A stretch of DNA of 64,000 bases, taken from contig JAAXWO010000010.1 in NCBI GenBank assembly GCA_013334965.1, forward strand, positions 22,522-86,521, written 5' to 3'. Position numbers and translations under genes: made by a program. How positions within the stretch are numbered: position 1 is the first letter of the stretch; each line of letters starts with the position of its first letter. Under the pieces are notes generated by a model. It did no database searches, was not told where the DNA came from, and saw nothing but the letters and a program-made list of their open reading frames with translations. This DNA comes from Chlorobiaceae bacterium (GTDB taxonomy: Bacteria; Bacteroidota; Chlorobiia; Chlorobiales; Chlorobiaceae). Positions 11,252-21,800 of the stretch are shown piece after piece.

Positions 11252-11326
11252 TGTCGTATTAATGTCGTATTTTATTCCTAAACATTGTTGATTGAATACG
11301 GTGTTTTTTGTTCCGTATTTGTTCCG
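11252..11326 (+). promoter_or_regulatory. Putative integrase arm-type binding sites
   Basis: TGTCGTATT x2 (11252, 11263) and TGTTCCG x2 (11309, 11320), each pair 11 bp apart. TGTTCCGTATTT is echoed by TGTCCCGTATTT at 35439 near attR. Confidence 0.6.
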
Positions 11327-11355
11327 CAGTTTTTGACCATCGACAACGACCAAAA

Positions 11356-12471
11356 ATGAAAGCGACCCTAAGAAAGCGTACGGCATCAGGCGGGAAACTG
11401 GCGCTCTACCTCGACATTTACCCACCCGCCCCACATCCCATTACAGGCAGGCTAACAAGGAAATATGCCCTTGGGATGTCGATCCATGAAAAACCTCGTA
11501 CGGAGAGTGAGCGACAGGAAAACAAGCAGACAATGGCTCTTGCCCGGTCAGTTCAAGCTAAAATCCAGTTGAGACTCCAGGCTCATGATTACGGCTTTTT
11601 CCTGCGTGATAATAAAGTGGCGTTGTTCCCTTACATCGATAAAATCGCCGACCGGGCCAAGTCCAACAAGAAGCAATATGACAGATGCAAAGAGTTGCTC
11701 GTCGAGCGGTACGGTGAAGATCTCTCAATGCAATTTATGACCCCACAGGTGCTGAATGATTTTCGCTTTTGGTTGCTGGAAAGATTTGCTCAAAATTCCG
11801 CATCGGTATACTTTGCGCGCATTATGCACGTCTTGAAGTGCGCCTATGATGAAAATATCTTGGCCGATGATCCCGTCAGAAAAGTGCGGCACATCCCTAC
11901 CAAGCGAGGTGAAGTTACTTACCTCGAAGCTGACGATATAAAGAAACTGCTGGAAACACCTTGCTCAGATAATGACCTGAAAAATGCCGTTGTTTTGTCG
12001 ATCTCAACCGGACTTAGACTGTGCGATGTCGAAATTCTAAAAGGTGAGAATTTCTTTATCACGGTAGAGGGGCCTGAAATCCGGATACGGCAGAAAAAGA
12101 CCAAGGATCTACTGACTATCCCAATCACATGGGATCTCTACCGTTACATCGATCCACCAGAAACAGGACTGGTGTTTAGTCGCATCCGAACTCACGCGTA
12201 CGATGGTACGCTAAAAAAATGGGTCGAAACAGCAGGCATCACAAAAAAATTCTCTTTCCACAAAGCCCGTCACACCTGTGCAGTAACCCTTGTCTCAAAC
12301 AATGTCAATCTCCGCACGATACAGGCACTGCTTGGGCACAAAACCATCAACTCTACAATTGTCTATGCGCATGTCGTAGACCAGGCGAAACGGGATGCGA
12401 TCGAAAAAATTAAAATACCTTTAAATATTAAGGAATATCCTCAAAAAAATGATACCATAAATATGCAGTAA
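11356..12471 (+). CDS. Tyrosine recombinase / site-specific integrase (Bacteroidota-Chlorobi type with N-terminal arm-binding domain)
   Basis: STGLR, H-x-x-R (FHKARHT), LLGH and final Y catalytic motifs; N-terminal LYLDIYP arm domain. Confidence 0.95.
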   Translation: MKATLRKRTASGGKLALYLDIYPPAPHPITGRLTRKYALGMSIHEKPRTESERQENKQTMALARSVQAKIQLRLQAHDYGFFLRDNKVALFPYIDKIADRAKSNKKQYDRCKELLVERYGEDLSMQFMTPQVLNDFRFWLLERFAQNSASVYFARIMHVLKCAYDENILADDPVRKVRHIPTKRGEVTYLEADDIKKLLETPCSDNDLKNAVVLSISTGLRLCDVEILKGENFFITVEGPEIRIRQKKTKDLLTIPITWDLYRYIDPPETGLVFSRIRTHAYDGTLKKWVETAGITKKFSFHKARHTCAVTLVSNNVNLRTIQALLGHKTINSTIVYAHVVDQAKRDAIEKIKIPLNIKEYPQKNDTINMQ

Positions 12472-19049: not shown

Positions 19050-19544
19050 TCAGATGAAAGATAGTTGATTGGAGACAAACCGCCACCCGCCGACGAGCGG
19101 ACCGAGCCTCACCGGCTCCCACTTGCCACCCCATTCCGGCAGCTCCACCTGCCCGAACACGACGATCGGCACACCGATGCCGACAGCATAAGCCGCCGTT
19201 GCCCAGGTGCCCGAGCCGGATCCATTGAAGCAAGCGCTTGAGCTGCCGGAAGGCACAAGGCGAGCAGGACAAGGAGCAGATGGATAGGCGGCGAGCGCAA
19301 CCCAGCCGCGCGACTCCTTGCAAGCCTTGACCATGGCCACGGAGCGGAGCGCAAAGGCCCCCGGCCCGCTGCCCTCGACCCTGAAAACCTCTGCCCCTGG
19401 CACAACGTTACGAACGGCCGCATCGATGCCGGAAGCGCAGCCGACCGCCACCGGTATGCCGTACCCCGCGATAATGAGCGCTGCCCGTTGAGCTGCTGCT
19501 ACCTGCGCGCCAGACGGCCGCCGTGAACCTGTGAACCCGACCAT
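19050..19544 (-). CDS. Stand-alone SLOG-superfamily (DprA/Smf-like Rossmann) protein
   Basis: VGFTGSR, VGCASGIDAAV, FALRS.AMV and GSGSGTWAT..YA motifs; start may be up to 19619. Confidence 0.75.
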   Translation of the reverse strand: MVGFTGSRRPSGAQVAAAQRAALIIAGYGIPVAVGCASGIDAAVRNVVPGAEVFRVEGSGPGAFALRSVAMVKACKESRGWVALAAYPSAPCPARLVPSGSSSACFNGSGSGTWATAAYAVGIGVPIVVFGQVELPEWGGKWEPVRLGPLVGGWRFVSNQLSFI

Positions 19545-19576
19545 AAACCACCTCTTTGTTTTGATGTTGCCGTTTA

Positions 19577-19715
19577 AAACCTTTCCCCGGGGGGATAGAG
19601 GCCTCCCCATGACGGGCAAACTCTCATGTCAAGGGCGCGCAGCGGGCGAAGCCTTTACCCTTTACATGAGAGGCAAACCGGCATATCTTTGGCCGGGCCA
19701 CCGGGGAAAGTGGTT
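19577..19715 (+). promoter_or_regulatory. Long imperfect hairpin containing TTTACA-N17-TATCTT; candidate ssDNA promoter
   Basis: Stems 19581-19590/19701-19710 (10/10) and 19621-19635/19658-19672 (14/15); -35 at 19661, -10 at 19684. Confidence 0.55.
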
Positions 19716-21800
19716 CAAGTCCGCGAAGCGGGTATGACTTATGCCAGCGCAGCGGAACGCTCTTCATCAACTTTATCGCTTACCGCCGGAGGCAATCGTG
19801 GAGGGTTTGGCGGGCCGCTTGCCTGCAGTTCCTGCAAGCGGCATGACAAACCCGAAGCTCCCGCGCGCTGGCGCGTCTTTTTGCTTTCCCCACCGCACAA
19901 AGCGTGACAGCGCGCCCGAGCGCTCCCCATGCCGGCTTGCCGGCCATATCGCCCCCCGACGCTCCCCATGCGCTGAGCTGGCGCGCTCTTTCCCTGTTGC
20001 GCGCCTGCTGAGCGCCATAGCGCCACCGCTGGCACAGCCACAAAACAGCACGAGCACCGGCCGCCTGGCGCGCTTGTTGCCTGAGTTTTTGCAACAAGCG
20101 TGACAGAATAGCGGCGGGTGCGGGGAGACGGATCAACAGCATGACGACGAGTAGCACGGAGAAAGCTGGCTTGTGCGCGCCAGCGGCCGTTTGCGCGCGC
20201 GCCAGCGTGACGGGATTGACGACCGCCTTGCGGACGCGCCTGCGCGGCCGTGTGGCGGCATGATATTGGCCAAACAACCCTCAACCGCTGATATTAGCGC
20301 CTGATGCCCCTGGCGGGCCGCTTGCGTGGCGTTCGGCAAGCGGCATGACAGGAAGGCATGAGGCGCGTAACGGAGCAAGATTGAACCTCGCCGACCTCCC
20401 GACGAGATTTCCTTTCCGGCTGTACGGCAATTCATGGAGCGCAGCGGCGCGCCTCGGTAGCAAAGCGGACGGGCGCGGCAAGTGGAGCGGAATGGATTGA
20501 CGCTCTGCCGGCATGAATACCGAGACAGTGCCACGTGAACCACAGATAAGGCAAAGGCCGCGAACCGCAACGTAGCGGGGCGAATGCAGTCCGTAGGGCA
20601 TAGAGAGGAACGAACGGAGCCCGAAGGCGCAATGAGAGAGCGGAGTGAGGACGCGCAAGGCTTTTGCCTGTAACGGATCGAGATAGAACCTTGACAGCCT
20701 CCCGACGAGATTTCCATTCCGGCTTGCTCCTCGCGGCGCGCCTGGCCGGGCTTGGCTTTGCCGGCGCTCCTGCCGGAGCGTTTTTGCGGCGCGTGGGCGG
20801 GTGGGATGGAGCGCCGCGCGAGTCCCCGCGCCGGCGACGCTCTTCATCGCCTGAGCGCAATTGCCGCAGCGGAGTGAGCCGAGGGAGCGTGCGCAGCGGA
20901 AGCGAAGAGGCGAAGGGAGCGGAGGCTGTTGTGCGCTGGCGGTTTGGGCCCCGGCGAGCCGCCGGGGATTGGCGGAGCATGAAGGCGCGGAAGGAAGGCG
21001 GACAGCAGCCGCGCCGCACGCGATCGAGCGGGCGGTCCTGCACGCGGATGCTGTCCGCCGCCGCGCCTTGATGCGGAGCCCAAGCGGAGCGCCATAGGCG
21101 TGGAGCGCGACGCGTTTTCAGTGCGTGAGCGCGCGGAGCCGGTAGCCGAAGGGCGTGGCGACAGGAGCGAGCAGTTCCGGCTTGCCGGAGCGCGAGCGGA
21201 TGGAGTGCCCGCAGGCTATCGGCGAGCACGGCTTACGCCATGCCCCGAGCGCGATCCTCGCCGGAAGCAAGCAATGGCTGGCGCCCGACGCAGCATTGCG
21301 CGAACAGCGCGCGGCGGGTGTCAGCCGTTGCGAAAGGTGGGCGGATGGCGTGAACTTCGCCTGCGGGCCGGCGTGGCAGTGAGCCGCTGCGCAGGAGCTG
21401 CGGCGGAAGCGGCGGCACTGGCAGCGGCGAACGGGGAGGGCGGGCGATGCGACGAAGGAGCGAGGACGCGCGAGCCGCGCCGGGCATGGCATAAATAGCG
21501 AAAGCCGCTGCGCCCCTACGGTTTTGCGGCTTTCTAAGTGTGGCAGAAAACTTGCGCCTTCTGTTGTACACCATTTGAATTTACATTTTTCCATCATTAT
21601 TACATCGCCCTCCAGCTATTTTTTGGACATCATCGCCAAATATGCGCGTGCTGCGCACCGTAGCGCAGAGAGGAGCGAAGCGGGAGAGGCTGAGCGAGCT
21701 TGCGAGCGAAGCCCGGACGCGAAGACGACGAACGAAGTGGAGAGCGCAAAGCAGACGCGGTCAACACGCTTGCCAATCTAAGCTTTCAGCGACCAAGGAC
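19626..21800. other. GC-rich structured non-coding tract A
   Basis: No credible ORF; at least 12 plus-strand GCGNAGC motifs; many short hairpins. Confidence 0.6.
20367..20724. repeat. Imperfect 55-bp direct repeat pair (20367-20421, 20670-20724)
   Basis: GTAACGGA..AGAT.GAACCT.G.C..CCTCCCGACGAGATTTCC.TTCCGGCT in both copies. Confidence 0.85.

Follow-up and report, generated by a model that had tools for sequence, protein, structure and literature searches.

Single-stranded DNA promoters explain how anti-defence and establishment genes can be expressed from incoming conjugative DNA before that DNA has become double-stranded. Class 1 comprises Frpo1 and Frpo2 of F and ssi1-3 of ColIb-P9 and pESBL, each a large hairpin that lies on the template strand of the adjacent genes and rebuilds a -35 and a -10 element when it folds (Masai and Arai 1997; PMC9849209; PMC12672017). 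Non-homologous classes of such promoters have already been published: class 2 (klcA/ardA) and class 3 (M.EcoGIX) of pESBL and F (PMC12672017), together with the Frpo-like candidates of Samuel et al. 2024 (PMC11541004). Those shown experimentally come only from the IncF and IncI plasmids of Enterobacteriaceae.

Here we describe a hairpin from a 64-kb stretch of DNA of a Chlorobiaceae bacterium, referred to below as the window. An initial annotation of this stretch had proposed a Frpo-like hairpin poised to express a SLOG gene from single-stranded DNA. Comparison with relatives indicates that the hairpin belongs to a family of imperfect hairpins of about 150 nt, specific to the Chlorobiaceae and carried in mobile elements, which share the class 1 design just described. 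All of the comparative checks suggested in the initial annotation gave favourable results. We think it probable that the window copy is, as predicted, a single-stranded DNA promoter for the housekeeping RNA polymerase of the host.

Results

The Hairpin in the Window

Folded as single-stranded DNA, positions 19577-19715 of the plus strand have a predicted minimum free energy of -37.3 kcal/mol. Dinucleotide shuffles of the same segment give -23±2.7 kcal/mol, none of the 200 equals the real value (z -5.3), and the plus-strand hairpin of roughly 140 nt drawn in the initial annotation is thereby borne out. The features on which our argument depends are as follows.

19050-19544, minus strand: stand-alone DprA-like (SLOG/Rossmann) gene, 164 aa, with its ATG at 19544; predicted target of the hairpin
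19549-19556, minus strand: SD of the DprA-like gene, AGAGGTGG
19578-19715, plus strand (the folding strand): whole imperfect hairpin, from the fold, the covariance model (89.9 bits) and covariation
19578-19590 with 19701-19715, plus strand: outer stem of the hairpin
19609-19615, plus strand: left arm of stem P2, ATGACGG; the partner CCGGCAT (19678-19684) extends up to the T at -12, and this helix (helix 2) covaries
19616-19620, plus strand: GCAAA, left half of a symmetric internal loop (5x5); GGCAAAC is nearly invariant in both arms
19621-19635, plus strand: left arm of inner stem P3, CTCTCATGTCAAGGG, pairing with the -35 region; 14 of 15 positions paired with 19658-19672
19636-19657, plus strand: apical loop of 22 nt with the mini-hairpin motifs GCGCAGC (19637) and GCGAAGC (19646)
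19658-19672, plus strand: right arm of P3, CCCTTTACATGAGAG, holding the -35 TTTACA (19661-19666), which is paired except at its third base
19684-19689, plus strand: -10-like hexamer TATCTT, with -12 at the stem end and -11 to -7 in the bubble
19721-19738, plus strand: 3′ companion, the short hairpin CCGCGAAGCGG followed by GTATGAC; conserved in the family
19740-21800, plus strand: GC-rich tract (~63%) without credible ORFs, 3′ of the hairpin, with repeated units and an excess of GCGNAGC

Each statement that the initial annotation made about the sequence is confirmed. TTTACA (19661), a spacer of 17 nt and TATCTT (19684) are present on the right arm; the -35 does lie in a 14/15 stem whose left arm reads TGTCAA opposite it; and the GCGAAGC mini-hairpin is found in the loop. 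The sole mismatch of the stem falls at the third base of TTTACA, a position occupied by G in the family consensus, so that a change from G to T has broken one pair. A second GCAAA, at 19673-19677 in the right arm, falls inside the promoter spacer. In the bubble ATCTT faces CCCC (19605-19608), again as claimed, and with DNA parameters the probability of being unpaired is 0.95-0.97 at positions -11 to -9, 0.76 at -8 and 0.71 at -7. Between 19500 and 22000 this promoter-like motif is the sole sigma70-like match on either strand, and a scan of both strands found no other promoter-like site up to 2.5 kb upstream of the DprA-like gene. The apical loop of the window copy is shorter than, and unlike, the conserved apical domain of the family.

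A Hairpin Family in the Chlorobiaceae

DNA searches in relatives recovered hairpins in which both arms are conserved and the loop between them varies. The family is carried by 34 of 123 Chlorobiaceae genomes, at one to three copies each, and comprises 49 distinct copies. An exact-pattern scan of the genomes of 185,579 species returned Chlorobiaceae records only. A covariance model built from 26 copies, the window copy included, was run on 401 genomes sampled across the phylum; the 21 positive genomes all belong to the Chlorobiaceae and represent 3 of 178 genera. Against this model the window copy scores E about 3e-18, and it is the most divergent full copy of the family. No second copy was found in its own genome. 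When the window block and a consensus copy were compared by blastn with 72,556 plasmids, the only match was pPAES01; blastn of the 3.5-kb window block against phage and plasmid collections gave no match.

Some copies are rearranged. In two genomes (G070 and G086; L071:3850-4075 and L072:3979-4204) the inner stem and loop are deleted exactly between two GGCAAAC direct repeats, which looks like the product of slippage across the hairpin. Four others (L062:4016-4251, L064:4083-4312, L065:4044-4279 and L070:150-383) have unrelated sequence in place of the outer left arm and keep the inner stem, the right arm and the 3′ companion; most of these have no close downstream ORF.

A scan of the 64-kb window with Rfam at gathering thresholds gave 0 matches, and relaxing the limit to E 10 around the hairpin added chance-level matches only. 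One of these, at E 1.2, had suggested a CRISPR repeat, a reading that we rejected since a match at that level is expected by chance.

The presence of one to three copies per genome next to different genes, with variants that have lost internal parts or exchanged an arm, might suggest a selfish palindromic repeat (MITE- or REP-like) or, like the attC of an integron, a site for recombination, in either case with no promoter role. We consider this extremely improbable: the copies occupy one kind of locus in one orientation to the genes, the window genome has a single copy, and neither R''/R' cores nor a gene for IntI or a transposase was seen nearby. The attC reading was rejected on two further grounds, namely that the flanks GTTTAAAAC and GTTCAAG misfit the RYYYAAC/GTTRRRY cores, and that the only integrase is a phage-type tyrosine integrase (11308-12471).

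Promoter-Like Features of the Family

Promoter features were counted in 44 distinct copies. The -35 is TTGnnn in 43 of them (TTGCAC in 16, TTGCGC in 8, TTGAGC in 7 and other variants in fewer), the window with its TTTACA being the only exception. The -10 is TAnnnT in 42 (TATCTT in 22, TATCCT in 12, TACCTT in 4 and three further variants once each), and 39 have a spacer of 17 or 18 nt. Calculated with DNA parameters, the probability that a base is unpaired has a median of 0.01 for every position of TTG, 0.37 for -12 and 0.95 for the A at -11, where it is at least 0.85 in 38 of the 44. In other words, the -35/-10 geometry that the initial annotation drew for a single hairpin holds in the relatives as well, with motif, spacing and paired/unpaired pattern all conserved (42-43 of 44 copies for the motif, and 39 of 44 for the spacer). 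Duplex DNA up to -12 followed by a single-stranded non-template strand from -11 is the fork-junction arrangement that sigma region 2 prefers.

The same elements can be set beside promoters of the host. Upstream of tRNA genes in the window's genome (G000) we find TTGCAa-N16/17-TATAWT, 12-24 nt before the mature 5′ end, examples being GTTGCACAAAAG...TATAAT and GTTGCACAAAAGGGGAATTATCCCTATAAT. The -35 flank TTGCACAAAA is common to these tRNA promoters and to the right arm of the hairpin (CCCTTGCACAAAAC), and the -10 variants TATCTT and TATCCT are weaker than the host consensus. Host housekeeping promoters are sigma70-like, unlike the -33/-7 type of Bacteroides.

Conservation extends beyond what a simple promoter mimic would need. 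Also kept are GGGGACAGAGGC in the left arm, the internal loop with GCAAA on both sides, the domain at the apex and the 3′ hairpin with ATGAC, which hints at an added or different function.

Selection on the Fold

Covariation was measured in a model-guided alignment of 42 distinct copies; fitting to a model favours structure, and compensatory changes are nevertheless visible in plain MAFFT alignments. Standard pairs fill 90.9% of the cells, versus 43-57% when the registers are slid by one to three columns. Both sides have changed in 14 of 37 pairs, versus 5.7±1.3 in column shuffles, of which none in 500 reaches 14. The pairing seen in the window has thus been kept in its relatives through compensatory change, a point on which the initial annotation had staked its reading. 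P3 provides an example, CTCTCATGTCAAGGG/CCCTTTACATGAGAG in the window corresponding to TTTTTGnGCAAGGG/CCCTTGnnCAAAAA in the family consensus. In helix 2, four of seven pairs have changed on both sides, and the stem next to -12 occurs as AGGACAG/CTGGCCT, ATGCCAG/CTGGCAT, CGTGCAG/CTGCACT and, in the window, ATGACGG/CCGGCAT. Judged from this comparison, the hairpin fold is under selection.

The alignment also bears on which strand folds. On the plus strand there are 77 G.T cells versus 26 A.C cells, or 36 versus 10 once the two most repeated columns are removed, an excess that speaks mildly for folding of the plus strand. Its complement folds well too (z -4.5), and the structure could accordingly belong to RNA: an intercistronic or 5′-UTR hairpin in a minus-strand mRNA, acting on processing, stability or translation, with the promoter-like motif incidental. 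In the ICEs described below, the hairpin does lie between co-directional genes (ArdC, hairpin, RadC), so that any read-through RNA would include it. We nonetheless regard a role of this kind as quite unlikely. G.T pairs, three times as frequent as A.C on the plus strand, would become C.A mismatches in the RNA; no Rfam family matches; and the conserved TTG-N17/18-TAnnnT, its match to host promoters and the contrast between a paired -35 and an unpaired -11A would all be left unexplained.

Placement Relative to Genes

Since the arm with the -35 and -10 would be the non-template strand of the folded DNA, the template would be the 5′ arm, and a transcript would leave the base of the hairpin toward the 5′ side. 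The initial annotation had argued for this orientation, with the left arm as template facing an opposite-strand gene, and the relatives agree: in 38 of 49 copies the hairpin base is followed, after 4-64 nt, by the start of an opposite-strand ORF no shorter than 66 aa, and in 36 of these 38 the interval is 16-64 nt. The ORFs so placed encode RadC/JAB (Pfam match 5.5e-41), a 167-176-aa family without a Pfam match, an 83-aa product, and the DprA-like (SLOG) protein. No consistent same-strand gene was seen on the other side of the hairpins.

Such an arrangement bears on the suggestion that the motif is an ordinary promoter of double-stranded DNA, directing rightward (plus-strand) RNA from within a palindrome that acts as operator or terminator. 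In duplex DNA, TTTACA-N17-TATCTT matches sigma70 at 9 of 12 positions, and in one ICE copy umuDC begins 220 nt further right, likewise on the plus strand of the hairpin. Against this, half of the copies lack any same-strand ORF in the 350 nt to their right, and where such ORFs occur they are mutually unrelated; such a promoter would leave unexplained why the left arm covaries with the arm that carries the -35, and why the bubble is conserved; and the GC-rich discriminator GGCCGGGCC disfavours melting of the duplex. A rightward promoter therefore seems very improbable to us.

The gene predicted to be the target in the window starts where the initial annotation placed it, at a minus-strand ATG (19544) with an SD, about 38 nt from the hairpin base. 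Its 164-aa product, whose homologues are likewise about 164 aa, gives a sub-threshold Pfam match to DprA and weak profile matches to DprA and to the DprA-like ShosA. A predicted model (pLDDT 94.5) finds its best PDB matches among DprA Rossmann domains (Foldseek probability 1.0, TM 0.54-0.60), followed by the LOG and Moco-carrier SLOG proteins. That model supports the original SLOG call; the other domains of DprA are absent.

Homologues of this gene had been singled out earlier as the place to look for the hairpin, and it is indeed found ahead of the SLOG gene in four of the six lineages examined (the window, G029, P0002 and P0004). In the two metagenome lineages P0002 and P0004 an ORF of 73-74 aa intervenes between hairpin and SLOG gene, and the hairpin keeps its fold, but the -10 reads TTTCTT, so that the -11A is lost. 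The hairpin is absent from the SLOG gene of G106, where the upstream region is AT-rich instead, and from that of the P0003 contig. Since hairpin and SLOG gene are associated in several lineages, their pairing is older than a recent accident.

Conjugative Elements of Relatives

Both hairpin copies of one complete genome (G024) lie in a single ICE that encodes a MobA/VirD2-type relaxase with DUF3363, VirD4/TraG, VirB4/TrbE, VirB11, an integrase, ArdC, RadC and umuDC. One copy is found between ArdC and RadC, and the other stands ahead of a 176-aa gene, abutting umuDC. A second contig of another genome (G133) is plasmid pPAES01 of Prosthecochloris aestuarii DSM 271, typed in PLSDB as conjugative, MOBP and MPF_T; it has transfer genes as in the G024 ICE, plus ArdC, the hairpin, RadC and a 168-aa gene. 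In RefSeq the pPAES01 hairpin (L138, NC_011061.1 32815-33081) is annotated as the hypothetical protein WP_150084573.1, an ORF that is probably spurious.

The initial annotation had concluded that the element, or the donor of this block of DNA, has a single-stranded phase. As regards a donor, the family does occur in a MOBP/MPF_T plasmid and in an ICE, next to ArdC, RadC and UmuC; the island in the window, for its part, has no conjugation genes. In the ICE as well as in pPAES01, the relaxase and T4SS genes have the hairpin strand as their template. The usual rule places oriT upstream of the relaxase operon, which enters last (PMC11541004), so on the evidence of gene orientation the hairpin strand is expected to be the transferred strand. 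A search for the nic site of the ICE relaxase, using the MOBP core ATCCTG, gave no convincing site. The hairpins are about 15-35 kb from the presumed oriT, so they are not at the very leading edge and would enter after that length of DNA.

The G024 ICE (L106/L017/L018; G024:C1 2.104-2.160 Mb) also contains defence-looking cargo, including a 575-aa ATPase adjoining a 644-aa UvrD-like helicase, a CHAT-domain protein (the only one of these calls checked against Pfam), HipBA-like genes and two proteins of about 1,000 aa that adjoin the Trb genes.

The Capsid-Encoding Island and the 3′ Tract

The window copy lies in an integrated, capsid-encoding element of about 24 kb, its boundaries taken from the first, sequence-only reading. 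The island encodes an integrase, ERF, a RusA-like resolvase, an exonuclease, Gp157, a TerS-like HTH protein, scaffold, major head protein, TerL and portal. Homologues of the ICE relaxase and coupling protein were sought in the window genome (99.7% complete) and not found, and the regions upstream of the ICE and plasmid relaxases show no similarity to the window that would point to an oriT mimic in the island. The hairpin is part of an antisense cargo block made up of the DprA-like gene, the hairpin, a 2.1-kb ORF-poor, GC-rich tract, a lipoprotein-like ORF and an SNase homologue. Homologues of the last, at 41-44% identity, are encoded by pPAES01 and an ICE-type contig as well, and syntenic islands are found in two other genera and in metagenomes. 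We believe that the hairpin module of the island was probably acquired from the gene pool of conjugative elements. The sequencing runs that match this region are all DNA metagenomes, and a search for RNA runs covering it found none.

In metagenome relatives of the island (L126-L130) the slot between the DprA-like and TerS-like genes is a cargo hotspot, occupied in one lineage by a NotI-like endonuclease and a D12 methylase and in another by BsuBI/PstI-like and Eco57I-like genes. Near the right end of the island, at 34689-35231 of the window, GCGNAGC occurs 10 times on the plus strand and 0 times on the minus strand, the same polarity as the hairpin strand.

Every copy of the family has a short covarying hairpin followed by ATGAC within about 30 nt on its 3′ side. 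The stem differs by subfamily (CCGC/GCGG, GCGCC/GGCGC, CCGGCC/GGCCGG), and ATGAC is kept. In the tract that follows in the window there are at least four further units of a short hairpin plus RTGACA (19803-19853, 19870-19910, 20065-20106 and 20309-20352), and between 18.9 and 21.7 kb GCGNAGC occurs 15 times on the plus strand versus 3 on the minus. Across the family, motifs of the GCGNAGC type number 87 on the hairpin strand versus 44 on the other on the 3′ side, and 50 versus 41 on the gene side. Short collinear patches link the window's tract with the non-coding tracts 3′ of the hairpins at ICE-type loci of three genomes (G128, G097 and G090); tblastn found no coding remnants of ICE proteins in it, only short non-coding patches being held in common. 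From these similarities the tract is probably part of the same module as the hairpin. Because the complementary strand would arrive from the side of the 3′ tract, a role in priming or in delayed conversion is plausible.

That role could, in principle, be the whole of the function. The hairpin might be a single-strand origin, at which polymerase or primase would make a short primer in the manner of ssoA/ssoU or ssi, or, together with the mini-hairpins of the 3′ tract, a roadblock that slows complementary-strand synthesis. Strand specificity and a promoter-like core would then be the same; the conserved mini-hairpin with ATGAC and the structured, plus-biased tract lie where complementary-strand synthesis would approach the hairpin; and two copies keep the fold without -11A. 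Frpo itself is reported to prime DNA synthesis (Masai and Arai 1997, cited in PMC12672017) and to be a roadblock (bioRxiv 10.64898/2026.01.09.698686). An origin, however, would not require a start codon 4-64 nt away in a fixed orientation, an arrangement that 38 of the 49 copies have, and in the alignments the ssoA signature CS-6 (TAGCGT/A) was not seen in the apical regions, which read GAGCTGCACAA...GCGGAAGCGAACG in the family and GCGCAGCGGGCGAAGCC in the window. As an account of the hairpin on its own, an origin or roadblock is in our view unlikely; it can coexist with a promoter role, as reported for Frpo.

Discussion

We propose that the plus strand folds once it is single-stranded. The inner stem would then rebuild the -35 as duplex (TTGnnC in general, TTTACA in the window), a second short stem would extend the duplex up to -12, and the -10 (TAnnnT; TATCTT in the window) would lie from -11 on in a bubble that is already open. 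Polymerase would use the 5′ arm as template, leave through the base of the hairpin and transcribe the opposite-strand gene 4-64 nt beyond, which in the window is that for the stand-alone DprA-like protein. Once the complementary strand had been made, the hairpin would be gone and the motif would point the wrong way, so that expression should be transient. The proposal builds on observed properties: the fold, its covariation, the conservation of the motifs, the paired/unpaired pattern, the orientation of the genes and the conjugative elements of relatives. From these we infer two further steps: the strand that folds is the one transferred, and polymerase initiates on it. Several points speak against a single-stranded DNA promoter, among them the distance of the hairpins from the presumed oriT, the phage-like character of the island, a genome without the ICE relaxase or coupling protein, the TTTCTT copies, the G-to-T change in the -35 of the window copy, the weak -10 and the conservation of parts that a simple promoter mimic would not need. 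A search of the literature on Chlorobium ICEs or promoters found nothing useful.

Why should a capsid-encoding island retain such a device? We speculate, and rate the idea as rather doubtful, that this island, and likewise those of at least three other lineages, keeps a predicted promoter that works only on single-stranded DNA ahead of the gene for a stand-alone DprA-like protein that would bind single-stranded DNA. If so, islands of this sort would, on a regular basis, take the form of one defined single strand or arrive in that form, whether by natural transformation, for which green sulfur bacteria are competent, by mobilisation through MOBP elements of the family or as the strand displaced during rolling-circle replication. 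The island would in effect sense the single-stranded state and respond with a protein that protects its own strand or processes it. The hairpin, the 3′ mini-hairpin with ATGAC and the structured tract would together be a portable "single-strand entry cassette" used by conjugative elements and phage-like islands.

For the study of single-stranded DNA promoters, the family offers a compact case of about 150 nt with strong comparative support from a distant phylum, the Chlorobiota. Its predicted anatomy is unusually clear (duplex -35, duplex to -12, unpaired -11A), with a -35 that mirrors host promoters, and there is a cultured carrier in Prosthecochloris aestuarii DSM 271 (pPAES01). It also nominates candidate early-entry genes, these being RadC/JAB, the 167-176-aa family, the 83-aa ORF and the stand-alone DprA-like protein.

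The pattern of duplex to -12 and single-stranded DNA from -11 is also that of fork-junction and pre-melted templates and of 6S RNA, a mimic of the open promoter. The templates are laboratory constructs and 6S is an RNA, whereas the Chlorobiaceae hairpin is a natural DNA element. The single-strand origins ssoA and ssoU of rolling-circle plasmids, reportedly the subject of work by Kramer, Khan, Espinosa and co-workers in the late 1990s, are also similar: they are orientation-specific hairpins of about 150-200 nt in single-stranded DNA, with a promoter-like partial duplex recognised by the host RNA polymerase. They differ in making a short primer RNA and in their RSB and CS-6 motifs, and they are not known to be placed at the starts of genes.

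Class 2 and class 3 promoters and the candidates of Samuel et al. 2024 provide a precedent for non-homologous hairpins with a reconstituted -35 and -10 ahead of leading-region operons, often near umu-like or anti-restriction genes. They come from Enterobacteriaceae plasmids, where they were recognised from transcription starts mapped by 5′ RACE or by leading-region similarity and consensus searches, and we set them beside the Chlorobiaceae family by description.

Class 1 is also close. Frpo/ssi hairpins and the Chlorobiaceae family alike recur within a conjugative element, ahead of establishment or anti-defence genes that differ from copy to copy, and the base of Frpo2 lies about 47 nt from the start of ssb on the transferred strand of F, the same geometry as in our hairpins. 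A simple sigma70 scan of Frpo2 found no boxes, so F is compared for geometry only. With filters off, the best match of the family covariance model in the F leading region (NC_002483) scores 16 bits, versus 90-173 bits within the family. The term "Frpo-like" in the initial annotation thus holds for geometry and proposed mechanism and fails for homology. The family is about 150 nt long versus about 320 nt for Frpo/ssi, has no sequence or profile similarity to Frpo, and differs in its GCAAA/GCAAA spacer loop, its 3′ hairpin with ATGAC and its Chlorobiaceae hosts; it also occurs in capsid-encoding islands, and its promoter activity is predicted. Our best reading is that the Chlorobiaceae hairpin would work like Frpo and is not homologous to it.
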